Positions 1,867 through 9,556 of a stretch of 9,840 nucleotides of DNA are shown in pieces (positions within the stretch are counted from its first letter, which is position 1; each line of letters opens with the position of its first letter). Under the pieces are notes generated by a model. That model was not told the DNA's origin. It did not search any database and worked only from the letters and a program-made list of their open reading frames with translations. A program made the translations under genes and the position numbers. Source of the DNA: a virus (lineage: Duplodnaviria > Heunggongvirae > Uroviricota > Caudoviricetes); IMG/VR virus record IMGVR_UViG_2693429623_000020; one strand, written 5' to 3'.

Positions 1867-1883
1867 AGGGGAGCATATGACAT

Positions 1884-1913
1884 ATAAAACAAAGGCGACC
1901 GGGGGCGGTCGCC
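1884..1913 (-). terminator. Rho-independent terminator for the minus-strand operon
   Basis: Hairpin GGCGACCG-GGGG-CGGTCGCC (1894-1913); on the minus strand it is followed by TTTGTTTTAT. No U-run on the + strand. Confidence 0.55.
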
Positions 1914-1980
1914 AATGGATACACACTAAACTTGAACGCATCACCAACAATGCCACATTTGCGGCTGGTGGGCAATGTGA

Positions 1981-2160
1981 TCAGTCAGATTTGGTTCGTT
2001 CCAAGGTTTGCAACGAGAGCTTTTTCCTGTGCTCTTTAAGGAATTTCTCAAGAGCAAACGAACAAGGTGCGAATCTTTCTGATTCATGTTCATGCGCTAT
2101 ATTTTTGCGTCGTCTCTTACGAGTTGGTGATGGTGTTTTGGTTGATTCTGTGTCGCTCAT
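1981..2160 (-). CDS. Small basic hypothetical protein (59 aa), second gene of the divergent operon
   Basis: Minus-strand ORF below the ORF-track size cutoff, hand-translated as MSDTESTKTPSPTRKRRRKNIAHEHESERFAPCSFALEKFLKEHRKKLSLQTLERTKSD. AGGA lies 8-11 nt upstream of the ATG at 2160. It sits between the RHH gene and the minus-strand terminator. Confidence 0.4.
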   Translation of the reverse strand: MSDTESTKTPSPTRKRRRKNIAHEHESERFAPCSFALEKFLKEHRKKLSLQTLERTKSD

Positions 2161-2217
2161 GGTGCTGTCCTGTAAAGCAATGCGCCTGCGTTCCTCAAAC
2201 TATGGCGCTGATAGTGG

Positions 2218-2523
2218 CTATTCCTGCTCTTTGACCTTGCGTCGCTGGAGTTCTTCACGCGCGACGGTGACGAGTTGCCCGATCTCCTCGGCGGCTTTGA
2301 CTCCGATTTTTTCCACCTGCGCTAGGGCATCGAGCGAAGAAACCAGGAGGTTTTCTCCGCTTCCTTCTGCCTGGCGGCGGGCGATTTCACCGCGCATGGC
2401 GGTTACTATGAATCCGGCGTTGCTTTCACCGTCCAGTTTTACGGATTCCATGCCTTCAATAACATCATGCGGGATCCGAGCTGTCAGTGATTGTGATTTT
2501 GCGTTTTTTGAACCTGTAGCCAT
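2218..2523 (-). CDS. Ribbon-helix-helix (CopG/Arc/MetJ-like) putative transcriptional regulator, 101 aa
   Basis: N-terminal segment SLTARIPHDVIEGMESVKLDGESNAGFIVTAMRGEIARRQ has the strand-helix-helix pattern of RHH DNA-binding domains, followed by a charged helical tail. Start placed at the ATG at 2523 (GAGAGGA RBS 7 nt upstream) instead of the ORF-track start 2538. Divergent from the rightward genes. Confidence 0.6.
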   Translation of the reverse strand: MATGSKNAKSQSLTARIPHDVIEGMESVKLDGESNAGFIVTAMRGEIARRQAEGSGENLLVSSLDALAQVEKIGVKAAEEIGQLVTVAREELQRRKVKEQE

Positions 2524-2544
2524 CTGTAATCCTCTCAATGAAAG

Positions 2545-2621
2545 TGTAAGACAATATACACATAAAAAGTCTTACATAAAAGCATTGACATGTAAGCCAC
2601 CTATAAATAAAGTTACTTACA
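2545..2621. promoter_or_regulatory. Divergent promoter/operator region with four TGTAAG half-sites in two inverted pairs
   Basis: TGTAAG at 2545-2550 and 2591-2596; CTTACA at 2571-2576 and 2616-2621. TTGACA (2585-2590) and a -10-like TAAAGT (2608-2613) at 17-bp spacing lie between them. Sits between the divergent RHH gene and the rightward Icd-like gene. Confidence 0.45.
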
Positions 2622-2719
2622 CCTTGTTAATGCAAGGTGCAGAAACGACGAAACCCCGCACTGTAGGAGCAGTAACGGGGCTTCTAACCACCAACGATAG
2701 CAAGATTATCGAGGCAGCT

Positions 2720-2923
2720 ATGAGAAATCATACCATACACCCGCAAGGGCGGGACTCGTACAACCTGAATAAATACATCTGGCGTTTTATCGCCCTGAGC
2801 ACCGCACAACCGCGCGTGATTCACATCGTGGCCACCAGCGAACAGGAAGCACGCCAGCAATCCCCGGCTGGCTGCGTGATGGTATTCGCCGCCCGTATTC
2901 GTCAGGGGGTGTGCCATGCCTGA
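2720..2923 (+). CDS. Small protein resembling the host cell division inhibitor Icd-like family (67 aa)
   Basis: Only the 3' end of the 348-aa ORF-track entry is taken as coding, starting at the ATG at 2720 (GAGG 5 nt upstream). The pattern YIWRFIAL...ATSEQEARQQ....VMVFAARI resembles Icd-like small proteins of enterobacterial satellite prophages as I recall them; not verified by search. Confidence 0.45.
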   Translation: MRNHTIHPQGRDSYNLNKYIWRFIALSTAQPRVIHIVATSEQEARQQSPAGCVMVFAARIRQGVCHA

Positions 2924-3242: not shown

Positions 3243-3542
3243 ATGAGAACGTATTTATCTGGCTTGACTGCCAGCGGTTATGCACACCCCCAAATTATCC
3301 CCGGCGCTATTTATCTTGATAAGAACGGTAACAGAGTAACGGTAAAAGAACTGATGTTTGACCGTGTGTATTTTATTCGTGATGGCTATTCATTTCATAG
3401 TTCGCTGAACGTGGAGATCTTTATTAGCAGATTCAGGCGGGAAATCCCGCTTTCCAGAAATAACCATGTGTCACGTGTGGATGTGGATAAAAAACTACAG
3501 GAACTGAAAAACATGATTGCCGCGTGGAGAGAGCAGAAATGA
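3243..3542 (+). CDS. Hypothetical protein (99 aa), translationally coupled to the replication gene
   Basis: ORF whose stop overlaps the start of the next gene (ATGA at 3539-3542). No recognisable motif. Confidence 0.55.
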   Translation: MRTYLSGLTASGYAHPQIIPGAIYLDKNGNRVTVKELMFDRVYFIRDGYSFHSSLNVEIFISRFRREIPLSRNNHVSRVDVDKKLQELKNMIAAWREQK

Positions 3543-5356
3543 AAAAAGCGCCAAATTTAAAACACCAGCCGCGTGACAAAATGACGGAAGTCATCATTTT
3601 TGCGGGTAGTGATGCGTGGGCACATGCGAAACAGTGGCAGGAACAGGACGGGCGACTGGCTGGCGATAACGTGCCACCTGTCTGGCTTGGAGAGCAACAA
3701 CTTGTCGAACTGGACAACCTGCAAATCGTACCGGACGGACGCTATCGCGTGCGTCTCTATCAGGCGGGGTTATTGCGTCCGGGGCTTGTTAATACCATCG
3801 GGCAGAAACTGGCAGAGGCAGGTGTCAGGGATGCTGATTATTACCCTGAAGGAATGCACAGCCAGAAACGGGAGAACTGGCGTGAATATCTGGAACGTGA
3901 ACGGGCAGAGCTGGCGGAAAAGAAAAAGGTAGTTGAACTGCCTGTAAAGAAAAAAGAGCGGGTAAAAGACGATAACGCTTCATCACTGGCGCTTAACCAG
4001 ATGGGAGCAAGTCAACGCGGCGAAGTTCTCCTGGCACATTATGGCGGTGAACTGGCGATTCATGCTGACTCTGACACTGTTCACCATTACAACGGCATTG
4101 TATGGGAGCCAGTACAGGATAAAGAATTACAGCGAGCTATGGCGCAGATTTTCATTGATGCGGAGATCAGCTATTCGCAGAACGCCATTAAATCGGCGGT
4201 CGATACCATGAAGTTAAGTTTGCCTGTTATGGGGAATACAGCCCGTAACCTGATTGGATTCAGTAACGGGGTATTTGATACCAGAACAGGTAATTTTCGG
4301 GAGCATAACAAAAACGACTGGTTGTTAATTGCCAGTGAATTACCTTTCAGCCCACCAGCAGAGGGGGAAACGCTGGCAACACATGCGCCGAATTTCTGGA
4401 AGTGGTTACGCCGTTCGGTGGCTGAGAATGACCGCAAGGCGGATCGCGTACTGGCTGCATTATTCATGGTGCTGGCGAACCGGTACGACTGGCAGTTATT
4501 CATTGAGGTAACAGGTCCAGGGGGAAGTGGTAAAAGCGTGATGGCGGAGATTTGCACCATGCTGGCGGGTAAGGCCAACACAGTATCGGCAAGCATGAAG
4601 GCGCTGGAAGATGCAAGGGAACGCGCGTTAGTGGTTGGCTTTTCGCTGATTATCATGCCGGATATGACCCGCTACGCTGGTGATGGGGCAGGAATTAAGG
4701 CCATTACAGGCGGTGACAAGGTGGCAATTGACCCGAAACACAAAGCCCCCTACTCAACGCGTATTCCGGCAGTAGTGCTGGCGGTTAACAATAACGCCAT
4801 GTCATTCAGTGACCGCAGCGGGGGGATCTCACGTCGTCGGGTGATATTCAATTTTTCGGAAGTTGTACCGGAGAACGAACGCGATTCAATGCTGGCGGAA
4901 AAAATAGAAGGTGAGCTGGCGGTAGTGATTCGTCATCTGCTTACACGGTTTGCTGACCAGGACGAAGCCAGACGCCTTTTATATGAGCAGCAGAAATCAG
5001 AAGAAGCACTCGCGATAAAGCGTGAAGGTGATTCGCTGGTGGACTTCTGCGGCTATCTCATGGCGTCGGTAATGTGTGATGGCCTGTTAGTGGGTAATGC
5101 TGAAATTGTGCCATTCAGCCCGCGCAGGTATCTCTATCATGCCTATCTGGCTTATATGAAGGCACATGGGTTTGGTAAACCTGTAACACTGACGCGCTTC
5201 GGTAAAGATATGCCGGGGGCAATGGCGGAATATGGCAGGGAGTATATGAAACGGAAAACGAAGCACGGTTTGCGTTCAAACGTGACACTGACGGAGGAAT
5301 CAGAAGACTGGATGCCATCATGTGTATCGGTCACTAATGACGATAGCAAAAATTAA
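3539..5356 (+). CDS. Replication initiator, P4-alpha-like C-terminal region (D5_N-like plus SF3 helicase P-loop NTPase), 605 aa
   Basis: Walker A motif EVTGPGGSGKS; the surrounding NGVFD..TG...EH and FW.WL.R context is typical of the phage/plasmid primase P4-family C-terminal domain. Start set at the ATG at 3539 (ATGA overlap, GGAGAG RBS) rather than the track start 3524. A canonical primase domain is not obvious in the N-terminal 250 aa. Confidence 0.85.
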   Translation: MKKAPNLKHQPRDKMTEVIIFAGSDAWAHAKQWQEQDGRLAGDNVPPVWLGEQQLVELDNLQIVPDGRYRVRLYQAGLLRPGLVNTIGQKLAEAGVRDADYYPEGMHSQKRENWREYLERERAELAEKKKVVELPVKKKERVKDDNASSLALNQMGASQRGEVLLAHYGGELAIHADSDTVHHYNGIVWEPVQDKELQRAMAQIFIDAEISYSQNAIKSAVDTMKLSLPVMGNTARNLIGFSNGVFDTRTGNFREHNKNDWLLIASELPFSPPAEGETLATHAPNFWKWLRRSVAENDRKADRVLAALFMVLANRYDWQLFIEVTGPGGSGKSVMAEICTMLAGKANTVSASMKALEDARERALVVGFSLIIMPDMTRYAGDGAGIKAITGGDKVAIDPKHKAPYSTRIPAVVLAVNNNAMSFSDRSGGISRRRVIFNFSEVVPENERDSMLAEKIEGELAVVIRHLLTRFADQDEARRLLYEQQKSEEALAIKREGDSLVDFCGYLMASVMCDGLLVGNAEIVPFSPRRYLYHAYLAYMKAHGFGKPVTLTRFGKDMPGAMAEYGREYMKRKTKHGLRSNVTLTEESEDWMPSCVSVTNDDSKN

Positions 5357-5369
5357 ACTTATGGAATAA

Positions 5370-5592
5370 CTGTTCACCACTGTTCACCCTGTCATAAATA
5401 TCTTTTGTATCAGTATGTTATAGGGTGAACAGTTATTTATGAACTGTTCACCAAACTATTCACTGTTCACCTTTTTGATTGTTTATTGAGCTTCAAGGGT
5501 GAACAGTGGTGAACAGTTGGTGAATAGTTTTTGTGAAACTGTTCACCCCTTAACATTATGAATTAAAAGATAAAATATCAAAAGGTGAACAG
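5370..5592. repeat. Replication origin: at least nine 9-bp iterons CTGTTCACC / GGTGAACAG in both orientations in an AT-rich background
   Basis: CTGTTCACC at 5370, 5380, 5444, 5463, 5539; GGTGAACAG at 5424, 5498, 5508, 5584; degenerate copies near 5454 and 5518. The core TGTTCACC is the type I iteron bound by P4 alpha (from memory). Located directly after the alpha-like gene. Confidence 0.8.
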
Positions 5593-5643
5593 GTGAAGGG
5601 TTAAAACGCAAAAATTTTAATTTACTGCTGTGAGATAAAGCCT

Positions 5644-5889
5644 ATGACAGCGAAGCACACAAAAAAATCACAATCGCACGCCCTTGATTTGACGGAACAC
5701 TGGTTAAGGGTGTCGATAAAAATCATCGACCGCAACGCCGGGGAAGGATATGCGAAAGCACATCCCGAACTGATTAGCTCATTCATGACAACGGCAGCTG
5801 CAAACTTTGCCACGCTGACAGAACGGGAGATTGCCGAAGCGGAACAGGTGACAACCATCAACGTTAAAACCGGAGAGCAGACAGCATGA
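5644..5889 (+). CDS. Hypothetical protein (81 aa)
   Basis: ORF whose stop overlaps the start of the SSB-like gene (ATGA at 5886-5889). Weak RBS; no recognisable motif. Confidence 0.45.
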   Translation: MTAKHTKKSQSHALDLTEHWLRVSIKIIDRNAGEGYAKAHPELISSFMTTAAANFATLTEREIAEAEQVTTINVKTGEQTA

Positions 5890-6269
5890 CAGCACAGATA
5901 GCGGCTTACGGGCGGCTGGTGGCTGACCCGCAGTTAAAGACCACCAGCAAGGGTACACAAATGACGATGGCGAGTATGGCGGTCCCACTTCCGTGCAGCC
6001 AGGCAGATGACGGAACGGCGACGATGTGGTTATCCGTCCTGGCGTTTGGCAGACAGGCCGAAGCACTGGCAAAGCACCGCAAGGGCGAACTCCTGAGCGT
6101 GGCGGGTAACATGCAGGTGAGCCAGTGGACCGGACAGAACGGGGAGACGCGGCAGGGCTGGCAGGTTATCGCAGACAGCGTAATCAGTGCGAGAACGGCG
6201 CGACCGGGCGGCAAAAAAGGCCAACAGGCGGGAAATGATGATCCGTACGGGGATAACATACCGTTTTAA
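5886..6269 (+). CDS. ssb: Single-stranded DNA-binding protein-like (OB fold with SSB-type acidic C-terminal tip), 127 aa
   Basis: Ends in DDPYGDNIPF (E. coli SSB ends DDDIPF). The core pattern G.L..DP...W..V..FG..AE.....KG....V.G.......W....G..R matches the SSB OB fold. Confidence 0.65.
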   Translation: MTAQIAAYGRLVADPQLKTTSKGTQMTMASMAVPLPCSQADDGTATMWLSVLAFGRQAEALAKHRKGELLSVAGNMQVSQWTGQNGETRQGWQVIADSVISARTARPGGKKGQQAGNDDPYGDNIPF

Positions 6270-6284
6270 GCAACGAGTAACAGA

Positions 6285-6307
6285 AGCCGGAGCAATCCGG
6301 CTTTTTT
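6285..6307 (+). terminator. Rho-independent terminator after the SSB-like gene
   Basis: Hairpin AGCCGGA-GCAA-TCCGGCT followed by TTTTTT. Confidence 0.7.
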
Positions 6308-6309
6308 AT

Positions 6310-6381
6310 GGGTCCTCCCGGTGTAGTGACCTGCCACGGGGCGGGAGCGTCGCGGAAAAAGGCTGGTTTTTGCATTTTCAT
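6310..6381 (+). other. cos-like element, copy A (lambda cosQ-cosN-like), upstream of the capsid module
   Basis: GGGTCCTCCCGGTG...CCACG GGGCGGGAGCGT CGCGG...TTTTCAT. Lambda's right end/left end junction as I recall it is TTTACGGGTCCTTTCCGGTG...GTTACG | GGGCGGCGACCT | CGCGGGTTTTCGC. 66/72 identical to copy B. Putative 12-nt cohesive end at 6339-6350. Confidence 0.55.
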
Positions 6382-6693: not shown

Positions 6694-6900
6694 GTGAGTT
6701 GTATTAATGACCTGAACACGGGCGATATCAGGGGTGGTTCCGTTCATCTGGATGCGCAGACCGTTATGCGCCTTAAGCAGTACAGGATCGACCATATAAA
6801 TCATCATCCTGACAAACCATTACCAGGTGTGGCGCAGATTGTCAGACATGCCGTAAACACCTGGCTTAATCAGAATGGTTTTGCATCGGTGGGGGAATAA
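6694..6900 (+). CDS. Small RHH-like putative DNA-binding protein (68 aa), first gene of the capsid operon
   Basis: GTG start with AGAGGAAG RBS. SVHLDAQTVMRLKQY...VAQIVRHAVNTWLNQ fits a strand-helix-helix pattern. Its stop overlaps the start of the capsid gene (TAATG). Confidence 0.5.
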   Translation: MSCINDLNTGDIRGGSVHLDAQTVMRLKQYRIDHINHHPDKPLPGVAQIVRHAVNTWLNQNGFASVGE

Positions 6901-8813
6901 TGAATCGCTGGTACACCATTAAGGCGGCGGATGTTCGTGGAGCGGCGGATATATCTATCTATGAGGAGATTGGCGGCTTCGGTGTTACTGCAAAGCAGTT
7001 CGCGGAAGACCTGAAAGCCCTTGGCGATGTTTCACATATCAATCTGAGGATCCATTCACCAGGTGGTGATGTGTTTGAAGGCATCGCCATCTATAACCTG
7101 CTACGGAATCATCCGGCAGACATTACGGTTTATATCGATGGTGTTGCGGCTTCAATGGCTTCGGTGGTCGCAATGGCTGGCGATCGTGTAGTGATGCCGG
7201 AGAACGCCATGATGATGATCCATAAACCGTGGGGGATCTCTGGCGGAAATGCTGGCGATATGCGTGATTATGCTGATTTGCTGGATAAGGTGGAAACCGT
7301 GTTAATCCCTGCTTATGCCAGAAAAACGGGCAAATCAGCACAGGAAATTACCGCCATGCTGGAGGATGAAACCTGGATGGATGGGAAAGAATGCCTTAAG
7401 CACGGTTTTGCTGATGAATTGTTGCCATCCGTCAGAGCAATGGCGCGAATTGAATCGAAACGCACAGGAGATTTTTTACATATGCCGGAAACCATTAAAG
7501 GAATGATTACACCGCCACAGGGAGCGGCAAATATTGCTGGTAATGAACAGAAGCGCATCAATGGAATAAGTGAAGTGTTTAGCCTGTTCGGCAGTCGTTA
7601 CGACGGGATCAAAATGGCGTGTCTGGAAGATGCATCATGTACACCGGAAATGGCCCGTGAAAAGCTGTTGAACGAGCTGGGGCGCGAGTCCACGCCATCC
7701 AATAAAAATACCCCGCCTCATATCTATGCTGGAAACGGAAACATAACAGGTGATGCAATTCGTCAGGGGCTTTATTCCCGTCTTGGGTATGAACGGCCTG
7801 AACGAGGCAACCCTTACGCGATGATGAGTCTTTTTGAAATGGCCCAGGCATCACTGGTTGATCGTGGTATCACTGTGAGCGGTTTTATTAATCGCTCGCA
7901 GGTTGTTAATGCGGCTTTTACACACAGCAGCAGTGATTTTTCTCATATTCTGGCTGGTGGGGCTGAAAAATCTGTACTGAAAGGCTGGCAGGACAGCGGC
8001 GAAACGTTCCAGAAATGGACGCGTACCGGTTCGCTTTCAAACTTTCATGAAGCAAAGCGCGTTGGTCTGAATGGTTTTTCAAAGCTGGATAAAGTACCGG
8101 AAGGTGCGGAATATAAATACATCACCACCAGCGATAAAGGTGTACCTATTGCGCTGGCCACGTACGGGAATATATTTTCCGTTACCCGTCAGGCCATTAT
8201 CAACGATGACCTGACCCAGTTAACTACAATCCCCATGGCGATGGGACGCGCAGCTGCCAGAACAGTTGGCAATCTGGTTTATCTCCTGTTAACCAGCAAC
8301 GGCAAGTTTACGGATGGTAAAGCGTTATTCCATGCCGATCATAAAAATCTTATTGCGAAGGATATGGACATGGAGGGGCTTAACGAAGCCCGTAAGCTGA
8401 TGCGCCTCCAGGAAGACGCTAACGGCGATTCGCTGAATATTACCCCTGCATTTGTCCTGGTCCCCGCCGCGCTGGAGTCTGCCGCACATCGCGCCATTCT
8501 GTCATCGTCATCACTCTTTCCGGTTGATGGCGTGGGCACTATCAATCAGAACCCCGGCATCATTAACGTGGTGAAAGATATGGCGGAGGTAATCGTTGAG
8601 CCACGTCTTGATAAAGCCAATAACAAGGAGTGGTATGTGGCAGCGGCGAAGGGTATGGACACGATAGAGGTCGCTTATCTTGATGGTATTGATACGCCAT
8701 ATCTTGAGGAGCAGGAGGGCTTTACTGTTGATGGCGTCGCCTGGAAGGTGCGCATAGATGCAGGTGTAGCGGCCCTCGACTATCGCGGATTACTGAAATC
8801 GAGTGGAGCATGA
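6900..8813 (+). CDS. ClpP-like (S14) prohead protease fused to an HK97-fold major capsid protein (637 aa)
   Basis: N-terminal about 190 aa contain DGVAASMASVVAMAG and MMIHKPWGISGG, matching the ClpP active-site Ser and His motifs (GQAASMGAF / MIHQPLGG). The C-terminal 350 aa (..TIEVAYLDG..FTVDGVAWKVRIDAGVAALDYRG) resemble HK97-like major capsid proteins. GGGGGAA RBS. Confidence 0.85.
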   Translation: MNRWYTIKAADVRGAADISIYEEIGGFGVTAKQFAEDLKALGDVSHINLRIHSPGGDVFEGIAIYNLLRNHPADITVYIDGVAASMASVVAMAGDRVVMPENAMMMIHKPWGISGGNAGDMRDYADLLDKVETVLIPAYARKTGKSAQEITAMLEDETWMDGKECLKHGFADELLPSVRAMARIESKRTGDFLHMPETIKGMITPPQGAANIAGNEQKRINGISEVFSLFGSRYDGIKMACLEDASCTPEMAREKLLNELGRESTPSNKNTPPHIYAGNGNITGDAIRQGLYSRLGYERPERGNPYAMMSLFEMAQASLVDRGITVSGFINRSQVVNAAFTHSSSDFSHILAGGAEKSVLKGWQDSGETFQKWTRTGSLSNFHEAKRVGLNGFSKLDKVPEGAEYKYITTSDKGVPIALATYGNIFSVTRQAIINDDLTQLTTIPMAMGRAAARTVGNLVYLLLTSNGKFTDGKALFHADHKNLIAKDMDMEGLNEARKLMRLQEDANGDSLNITPAFVLVPAALESAAHRAILSSSSLFPVDGVGTINQNPGIINVVKDMAEVIVEPRLDKANNKEWYVAAAKGMDTIEVAYLDGIDTPYLEEQEGFTVDGVAWKVRIDAGVAALDYRGLLKSSGA

Positions 8814-8820
8814 CAACAAG

Positions 8821-8843
8821 GGCGGCGATAGCCGCCTTTTTTT
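8821..8843 (+). terminator. Rho-independent terminator after the capsid gene
   Basis: Hairpin GGCGGC-GATA-GCCGCC followed by TTTTTTT. Confidence 0.7.
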
Positions 8844-8845
8844 AC

Positions 8846-8917
8846 GGGTCCTCCCGGTGGGGTGGTCTGCCACGGGGCGGGAGCGGCGCGGAAAAAGGCT
8901 AGTTTTTGCATTTTCAT
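8846..8917 (+). other. cos-like element, copy B (lambda cosQ-cosN-like), about 150 bp upstream of the Nu1-like terminase gene
   Basis: TTTACGGGTCCTCCCGGTG...CCACG GGGCGGGAGCGG CGCGG...TTTTCAT. Same arrangement as lambda, where cos precedes Nu1. Putative 12-nt cohesive end at 8875-8886. Confidence 0.6.
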
Positions 8918-9070
8918 TCGTCATCATCATCTTCATATTGTATTGAATTTTAAGTATTTTTATTTTTGGTATGTTAATTTTGCTTGTTTTATGCTCAACA
9001 TATAGCGCATTTTTTGACCTCTTCTGAAAGTTGTTCGCAAGATGCATGTTTAAAACATTCTGGAGCGGGT

Positions 9071-9556
9071 ATGGATCGAGAACTGAAAAATCTGATGCTG
9101 AACATTAATCAACTGGCGGCGATAGCGGGAATATGTCGTCAGACTGCGGCGGCAAGGCTGAAAAACATCCAGCCAGCCGGAGGGCATGACAAGCTGAAAC
9201 TCTATCGGGTGACTGACATTCTGACCTGTTTTCTTGATCTTCCCGTTCCGGCATCACTGGAAGAAATGGAGCCACATGACCGTAAGGCCTGGTATCAGTC
9301 CGAACGTGAACGCCTCAAGTTCGAACAGGAAACGGCGCAACTCATACCCGCCGATGATGTGCGAAAAGAGATGGCTATATGGGGAGAAATCGTAAGCGAG
9401 GAACTGGCAAAACTCCCCAATATTCTGGCACGTGATGCCGGGCTTAAACCGATGGCAGTAAACAGAGTGCAGTCAATTATTGACGATTTGTGTAATCAGA
9501 TTATCAGCCGGATGGTAAAAAATGACGTAGTGAATGAGGTCGCAAAACAGGCATGA
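9071..9556 (+). CDS. Terminase small subunit-like protein (lambda Nu1-like N-terminal winged HTH), 161 aa
   Basis: Start at the internal ATG 9071 (GGAG 5 nt upstream). LNINQLAAIAGICRQTAAARLKNIQPAGGHDKLKLYRVTDILTCF parallels Nu1 VNKKQLADIFGASIRTIQNWQEQGMPVLRGGGKGNEVLYDSAAVIKWY, and it sits just downstream of a cos-like site. It could instead be a packaging-redirection factor (Rpp-like). Confidence 0.6.
   Translation: MDRELKNLMLNINQLAAIAGICRQTAAARLKNIQPAGGHDKLKLYRVTDILTCFLDLPVPASLEEMEPHDRKAWYQSERERLKFEQETAQLIPADDVRKEMAIWGEIVSEELAKLPNILARDAGLKPMAVNRVQSIIDDLCNQIISRMVKNDVVNEVAKQA

Follow-up and report, generated by a model that had tools for sequence, protein, structure and literature searches.

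The PICI-type phage satellites of Gram-negative bacteria are the closest described systems to the locus studied here. Their 'Replication' gene category consists of Primase, SSB and DUF5906 (PMC10111431). In the laboratory model EcCICFT073 the genes follow each other in the order DUF4222, primase, origin, an 85-aa ORF, a 136-aa SSB (WP_000126698.1, NC_004431 1384538-1384948), PerC and the capsid genes. According to its published description, in which ssb is not mentioned, the pri-ori segment of this island enables a plasmid to replicate in DH5alpha (PMC6092414). Replication of such plasmids without mention of ssb suggests that the host SSB is sufficient, at least for the copy numbers of a plasmid. 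A PICI of E. coli O157:H7 has a RepA-family helicase in place of the primase, yet it carries the same pair of small ORF and ssb. The gene family described below is already annotated, widespread and present in the model PICI, and is in this sense known in kind; no functional study of any PICI SSB was found in the searchable literature.

The bacterial-type SSBs of phages and plasmids are likewise mobile-element copies located in a replication or recombination module, and many of them have kept an acidic tail ending in Phe. Those of the F-type plasmids are closely related to the SSB of the host. The chromosomal SSB of E. coli (PDB 1EYG, 1EQQ) shares the OB fold, the disordered tail and the IPF C-terminus with the island protein, but is encoded by an essential host gene, whereas the island ssb is accessory and island-borne. 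For the E. coli protein it was reported that the 9-residue tip alone accounts for the binding of RecO, PriA, PriC and chi, and that large deletions in the linker lower RecO binding (PMC7145534).

Layout of the island

The window, i.e. the whole stretch of 9,840 nucleotides of viral DNA that was analysed, was compared with the layout described for Gram-negative PICIs (PMC6092414, PMC10111431). All elements of this layout were found: a length between 10 and 20 kb, a terminal integrase, AlpA, genes that mostly point in one direction, and an iteron origin downstream of a primase. The island is approximately 10.3 kb long, is bounded by an 18-bp direct repeat and lies between cspD and clpS; the public contig that carries the bounding repeat matches the whole window with a single mismatch. 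Judged by its gene content, the window is a Gram-negative PICI-type phage satellite.

One end of the island is occupied by a tyrosine integrase (1-1239, identified as an ORF with a domain match). Between the integrase and the primase lies a gene for an AlpA-family regulator (Pfam), which is followed by a small DUF4222 gene. The D5/P4-type primase-helicase (3539..5356, plus strand), called as a 605-aa protein in public assemblies, was recognized by the Pfam families D5_N, DUF5906 and Pox_D5, and its match to TIGR01613 ('phage/plasmid primase, P4 family'; E = 2e-27) scored 95.8 bits, which is below the cutoff of 108.7. This protein is the replication initiator of the island. Its gene is followed by the AT-rich iteron array of the origin (5370..5592), which contains 10 copies of GGTGAACAG/CTGTTCACC. 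The iteron GGTGAACAG had 14 matches in the window within one mismatch, compared with 1.8 expected, and none of 200 shuffled sequences reached this number; the GC content across the iteron region was 0.28-0.39. An array of this layout fits the origins of Gram-negative PICIs (PMC6092414).

The distal part of the island encodes a fusion of a ClpP-like prohead protease and a major capsid protein (6900-8813; NF045540, 904 bits), followed by a DUF1441 protein (Pfam), which matched phrog_141 'terminase small subunit'. No tail or lysis genes were found in the island, so that its virion genes are capsid and small-terminase-like genes and not a full set. The DUF1441 protein was considered as a homologue of RppA and was rejected, as BLASTP detected no similarity between the two. 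EcCICFT073 differs in this part, having a lambda-E-type capsid gene and RppA.

An intrinsic-terminator-like structure is located just downstream of ssb on the plus strand (6285..6308, RNA folding). Its hairpin (6285-6302) has a predicted folding energy of -16.1 kcal/mol (z = -4.4), none of 200 shuffled sequences folded as well, and it is followed by UUUUUU. A scan with consensus promoters and terminators did not return this hairpin, though direct folding shows it clearly; our guess is that an extension of the stem by A-U pairs uses up the T-run. The same scan found no promoter-like or terminator-like sites between the primase gene and ssb. The arrangement suggests that primase gene, origin, 81-aa ORF and ssb form an operon of early or replication genes with ssb as its last member, and that these genes would be co-transcribed. 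A search with Rfam yielded nothing credible in the window, an 80-nt repeat included.

The ORF at 5886-6269 encodes an SSB

The ssb gene (5886..6269, plus strand) starts with ATG and consists of 127 codons and a stop codon; it was assigned from the list of ORFs, Pfam, TIGR00621 and the RefSeq names of its homologues. Residues 5-99 of the product matched Pfam PF00436 SSB with E = 6e-16 and 58.8 bits (cutoff 26), the match to NCBIfam TIGR00621 reached 56.5 bits, exceeding the curated cutoff of 53.95, and PHROG 44 'single strand DNA binding protein' matched the 127-aa protein with E = 1e-37. When the protein was compared with PDB sequences by phmmer, almost only SSBs were retrieved (Thermus at about 2e-11, E. 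coli at about 1e-5). A search of 5.8 billion proteins yielded 766 homologous clusters at 90% identity, from Escherichia, Shigella, Salmonella and Citrobacter, nearly all of them named 'single-stranded DNA-binding protein', which is also the RefSeq label of the homologues. The exact 127-aa sequence is encoded by at least 24 independent public contigs, all of which share the insertion site between cspD and clpS, and carries Shigella sonnei names in public collections. The ORF thus encodes a genuine SSB and is far from being a chance ORF. The initial annotation had described it as a satellite-encoded SSB-like protein with a C-terminal tip ending in DNIPF; Pfam, TIGR00621, PHROG 44 and the predicted OB fold (see below) bear out the assignment, and the translated ORF does end in this tip (...AGNDDPYGDNIPF).

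The DNA-binding domain

A structure prediction for the OB fold had been proposed as a check of the assignment. The AlphaFold2 model, for which 103 family members served as input, had a mean pLDDT of 81.3 overall and approximately 90 for residues 1-103 (block means 82-95), which constitute the OB-fold DNA-binding domain (5886..6194, plus strand; AlphaFold2, Foldseek). The model has strands at residues 2-11, 16-19, 25-36 and 44-54, a helix at 55-62, and two more strands at 69-82 and 88-101. When it was compared with the PDB by Foldseek, all 50 of the top 50 matches were bacterial SSBs, with probability 1.00 and target-normalised TM values of up to 0.79. The features of the SSB-type OB fold, namely a five-stranded barrel, a helix between strands 3 and 4 and a long hairpin formed by strands 4 and 5, were present in the predicted structure. 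The fold was thus predicted with confidence, and the outcome that had been named as refuting the assignment, that no OB fold is predicted, did not occur.

The OB domain is 26% identical to that of E. coli SSB. Three of the four aromatic residues that stack with ssDNA in the E. coli protein are kept: W48, F54 and W81 align with W54, F60 and W88, whereas W40 of E. coli SSB is replaced by Q39 in the island protein. Among the 103 family members W48 is fully invariant, and F54 and W81 are invariant or nearly so. His55, a residue of the E. coli tetramer interface, aligns with Leu49, which is invariant in the island SSB family. The island SSB is predicted to bind ssDNA, and it may or may not form a homotetramer as E. 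coli SSB does.

The C-terminal tip

The family comparison showed that the C-terminal tip is conserved, while the linker preceding it varies. In the island protein the tip is DDPYGDNIPF (residues 118-127; 6237..6266, plus strand), as delimited by the family alignment and by counts of tip sequences. All of the 103 aligned sequences have D123 and F127, and D118, D119, P120, I125 and P126 are conserved to 90% or more, but position 124 (-4), which is N here, varies freely between N, D, G, E and S. When the last six residues were counted in 120 cluster representatives, GDNIPF was found in 48, GDDIPF in 19 and GDGIPF in 17; EDEIPF (8) and SDDIPF (5) were less common and were followed by rarer forms. 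The DNIPF ending had been regarded as a variant tip; within its own family it is, on the contrary, the commonest one.

Like the tip of E. coli SSB (MDFDDDIPF), that of the island protein ends in IPF, with D in position -5 and an aromatic residue in position -7. The two tips differ in the number of Asp residues among the last six, of which there is one in GDNIPF and three in the DDDIPF of the host protein. A disordered linker followed by an acidic tip ending in Pro-Phe, as expected for this protein family, is thus present, but the tail is less acidic and much shorter than that of E. coli SSB. In other Enterobacterales the tails mostly consist of an acidic run and Phe (DDEIPF, DDQIPF, DDE[AT]PF, DDDIPF, ...DDDF, ...HEDDF or NDEPEF); a few enterobacterial copies have a different ending or a shortened tail, and two alphaproteobacterial homologues have no tip. 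We also considered whether the tip is tailored to the island's own primase and rejected this, as no covariation between tip and replicase was seen by eye: loci of the Toprim/DUF927 type and loci of the D5 type both carry DDEAPF or DDF-type tips.

Counted together, linker and tip of the island SSB amount to approximately 24 residues, whereas the tail of E. coli SSB has 65 (a 56-residue linker and the 9-residue tip). Because the tail is so short, and because linker deletions reduce RecO binding in the E. coli protein, recruitment of partners by the island SSB may be weak. Taking these points together, the island SSB can probably dock host partners, though more weakly than the host SSB and in a manner that would depend more on DNA binding.

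A 39-bp deletion in the linker

The basic linker TARPGGKKGQQAGN (residues 104-117; 6195..6236, plus strand) is predicted to be disordered, pLDDT being below 50 for residues 104-119, and it contains the junction of a deletion. The nearest relatives of the protein are 140 aa long and 99.7-99.9% identical at the DNA level. Relative to this 140-aa form, 39 bp (13 codons, GQATDALSRAKQQ) are missing in frame. The lost segment lay between two direct repeats of CAACAGG, the surviving copy of which is at 6222-6228, and a loss flanked in this way bears the signature of slippage or of a microhomology deletion. The short linker had been noted in the initial annotation; it reflects a lineage-specific deletion and is neither typical of the family nor a feature of the protein's design, and this lineage-restricted loss of 13 linker codons is the only feature specific to the window.

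The short form was found in none of 5,426 complete E. coli genomes, in which the best matches all align in two pieces, and it occurs on 15 contigs, whereas the commonest of the 140-aa forms is on at least 1,000. The rarity of the deleted allele could mean that ssb is a dispensable passenger that hitch-hikes with the module and decays in this lineage, the 39-bp deletion reflecting relaxed constraint. The numerous sporadic variants of the family with indels or truncated tails would fit such a decay, as would the replication of the EcCICFT073 pri-ori segment alone (PMC6092414). However, the reading frame survives the deletion and neither the OB domain nor the tip is affected; the remainder of the gene is 99.7% identical to its nearest counterpart in a complete genome, and family and tip are conserved across many genera. 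Moreover, although the deleted motif is kept in several genera, it is missing in others and in the 136-aa E. coli type, EcCICFT073 included, so that intact family members naturally exist without it. For this last reason the loss of 13 linker residues is probably tolerated, and we consider it unlikely that the gene is a decaying passenger.

Distribution and synteny of the SSB family

DNA matching ssb was detected in 1,571 of the 5,426 complete E. coli genomes. When one genome per species was scanned, 42 loci with relatives of ssb were found, in Escherichia albertii, Klebsiella, Leclercia, Enterobacter, Buttiauxella, Kluyvera, Pectobacterium, Edwardsiella, Pantoea, Erwinia, Rahnella, Budvicia and others, and in a few Alphaproteobacteria. 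Forty of these loci from other genera were examined for synteny. A large ORF was located 170-1,100 bp upstream of ssb in 31 of them, and among these 31 ORFs Pfam recognized Toprim in 28, a Zn-ribbon in 25, DUF927 in 23 and D5_N/DUF5906/Pox_D5 in 8.

The 136-aa SSB of EcCICFT073 is 74% identical to the island SSB and has the same OB domain and a tip of the D-x-IPF type, but its linker is different (RRKTTGTQGNQPPAGG) and its tip reads GDDIPF. Its gene occupies the same position as here. The D5-type primases of the two islands are only 49% identical and their iterons differ. With an identity of 74% for the SSB and 49% for the primase, and with unrelated packaging modules, the SSB is not specialised for a single replicase. 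The SSB lineage is better conserved than the replicases of the islands and was found in company with at least three replicase types. That the gene belongs to the replication module of the island was substantiated, since ssb keeps its place downstream of replicase and origin both in EcCICFT073 and in the O157 PICI with its different replicase, as well as in the 31 loci from other Enterobacterales. Judged by this synteny, the family is a replication-module gene of PICI-like islands, irrespective of the type of replicase.

A tblastn search of 50,697 phage genomes detected no relative with more than 35% identity, the best matches being mostly to phages of Firmicutes. Acquisition of the gene from a known helper phage was therefore rejected, and the protein appears to be satellite-specific rather than helper-borne. 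Relatives at 56-73% identity are present on only a handful of enterobacterial plasmids; the one plasmid match that is higher (87%) is to a 4.9-Mb record, which resembles a chromosome that was deposited as a plasmid. Identity with an F-type plasmid SSB was also rejected, on account of the few enterobacterial plasmid relatives and the 26% identity to the host SSB. From the phage and plasmid searches the family looks specific to PICI-like islands of Enterobacterales. A conserved satellite-specific SSB is thus carried by Gram-negative PICIs, the laboratory model among them, and the natural series of tip and linker variants could be used to learn which features of an SSB C-terminus matter for the recruitment of host proteins.

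Proposed role

The features seen in silico, namely the OB fold, the conservation of the aromatic residues and of the tip, the terminator, and the synteny with replicase and origin, are consistent with an accessory SSB that serves island replication and possibly recruits host partners through its degenerate tip, and we regard this role as rather probable. Upon induction, transcription of the unidirectional early operon would pass the primase-helicase gene, then the origin and the 81-aa ORF and finally ssb, and would stop at the hairpin. The primase-helicase would melt and unwind the origin, and the exposed single strands would be coated by the island SSB through its classical SSB-type OB fold. 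The acidic tip terminated by IPF could then dock SSB-interacting proteins of the host, such as PriA or the chi subunit of the Pol III clamp loader. This docking might help host polymerase to assemble on island templates at a time when replication of the helper and of the island compete for host SSB. Recruitment of partners and any benefit to replication are inferred, and the island SSB is probably helpful rather than essential.

In a different reading the main role of the protein would be to act on the partners of host SSB, its IPF tip titrating or redirecting chi, PriA, ExoI, RecO, RecQ and others, so that the island is favoured to the detriment of the helper phage, itself dependent on host SSB, or of the repair pathways of the host. 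The IPF terminus and the acidic stretch are indeed conserved in spite of the low identity of the OB domain to host SSB, the protein is satellite-specific as judged from the phage genomes searched, and for a phage SSB-like protein with the tip FDDDIPF interference with SbcB/ExoI has been proposed (bioRxiv 10.64898/2026.04.29.721553). On the other hand, the weaker charge of the tip would make the island protein a poor competitor against the abundant host SSB. In addition, when the post-origin genes of EcCICFT073 were singly expressed from pBAD18, only c1503 (RppA) cut the plaques of lambda (PMC6739421); the region cloned in that work spans the position of the ssb homologue, although the clones are not itemised in the text. 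The competition with host SSB for partner proteins, which the initial annotation had listed among the possible functions, thus found no support, and the single-gene expression data argue against a strong role in phage interference. Taking both sides into account, an activity of this kind seems improbable.

A broader version of this idea is that the PICIs of Enterobacterales possess an SSB lineage of their own whose role goes beyond the coating of ssDNA, and which acts as a conflict factor. If this were true, a 'detuned' tip (G-D-x-IPF, or ...DDDF elsewhere) would recruit a subset of the host partners, proteins of the host replisome or of host repair would be diverted from the helper upon induction of the satellite, and SSB-sensing immunity (Retron-Eco8, AbpAB, DARNA, DRT10) would be set off or blunted. 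We hold this to be quite improbable. Nevertheless, given the existence of anti-phage systems that sense foreign SSBs, an SSB borne by a satellite is a candidate for cross-talk between satellite, helper and host immunity. The SSB of phage T7, gp2.5, is of a different type from bacterial SSBs. That the island SSB influences such defences, as trigger or as decoy for the sensors Retron-Eco8, AbpAB, DARNA and DRT10, is very improbable: several defence systems are activated by phage SSBs, and the island protein would be a non-host SSB made only on induction, but Retron-Eco8 responds to gp2.5 and not to the bacterial-type host SSB, the C-tail being dispensable, and no PADLOC family matched the SSB or eight neighbouring proteins at E <= 1e-3, for which reason the SSB was also rejected as a defence component itself.

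The small ORF upstream of ssb

Returning to the accessory replication SSB and its presumed operon, ssb had been described as lying directly after the origin. An 81-aa ORF (5644..5889, plus strand; phrog_1231, E = 8e-49) sits between the iterons and ssb. Its TGA overlaps the ATG of ssb in the sequence ATGA (5886-5889), and a GGAGAG Shine-Dalgarno sequence (5872-5877) is located 8 nt upstream of the ssb ATG. Through this overlap the 81-aa ORF is predicted to be translationally coupled to ssb.

The product of the ORF had no matches in Pfam, NCBIfam or among PDB sequences. Its AlphaFold2 model is a helical hairpin (pLDDT 72), for which the PDB contained no fold match. A profile search of 1.8 billion representatives yielded 758 small relatives, and in ten of these, taken as a sample, no informative Pfam domain was found. 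An HMM search upstream of ssb detected no copy of the 81-aa ORF in the 42 non-E. coli loci, one of which is from Escherichia albertii. The small protein is therefore no general partner of the SSB family. The ORF is confined to Escherichia/Shigella, and the proteins encoded in the O157 PICI and in EcCICFT073 are 71% and 86% identical, respectively, to the one described here.

Sequence context of the ssb gene

The acidic tip of the SSB varies among the homologues encoded outside E. coli. Those of Klebsiella, Rosenbergiella, Enterobacter and Pantoea islands (loci L013, L016, L020, L021, L037 and L051) end in ...DDDF or ...HEDDF and differ from the canonical tip in lacking Ile-Pro, and in two Sphingomonadales homologues (L045 and L047) the acidic tip is wholly absent.

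The ssb gene is also distinguished from its surroundings by base composition. Its GC content (0.54-0.64, window 5850-6300) is well above both that of the adjacent origin (0.28-0.39, window 5350-5650) and that of the flanking primase 3' end and 81-aa ORF (0.47-0.52). The stop codon of this ORF (window 5644-5889) overlaps the ssb start in an ATGA motif. The ORF is conserved in other E. coli PICIs with 71-86% identity, and its range is confined to Escherichia/Shigella. A helical hairpin is predicted for the product, which did not match any known domain or fold; a profile search returned 758 small remote relatives.

A strong terminator hairpin is located 3' of ssb (6285-6302), and another 3' of the protease-capsid gene (8818-8838). 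It was observed that an 80-nt direct repeat (window 6302-6381 and 8838-8917, copies 91% identical) starts inside the U-run of each hairpin, and that both copies lie upstream of the next late/packaging gene block. The repeat, for which no match was found in Rfam, may be a late promoter or a regulatory module present in two copies.

Capsid and packaging genes

The window encodes a 637-aa fusion of a ClpP-like prohead protease and a major capsid protein (6900-8813; NF045540, 904 bits). In the island of another assembly, L005, this gene and the preceding 68-aa ORF are absent and the island is otherwise identical, so the island can be maintained without its capsid gene. Further downstream (window 8984-9556) lies a gene for a DUF1441 protein matching the small-terminase PHROG phrog_141. 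Since BLASTP found this protein similar neither to RppA of the model PICI EcCICFT073 nor to the O157 PICI protein annotated as a small terminase, the packaging or interference module of the island differs from the characterised PICI module.

Probable island boundaries and a doubtful reading frame

In contig L004, which carries the island between cspD and clpS and in which the window corresponds to 4116-13955, the island is flanked by an 18-bp direct repeat, AATGGTGTAGTTAATTTT (L004 4078-4095 and 14404-14421). The two copies are probably the attachment sites; taken as such, they define an island of about 10.3 kb, whose right end is located about 450 bp past the end of the window.

A 348-aa ORF on the + strand (window 1877-2923), which some assemblies (L003 and L007) count among their genes, is probably spurious. 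It has no family match and overlaps the genes that other assemblies call in its place; at the equivalent positions of locus H1, RefSeq gives these the names YlcI/YnfO family (- strand) and Icd-like (+ strand).
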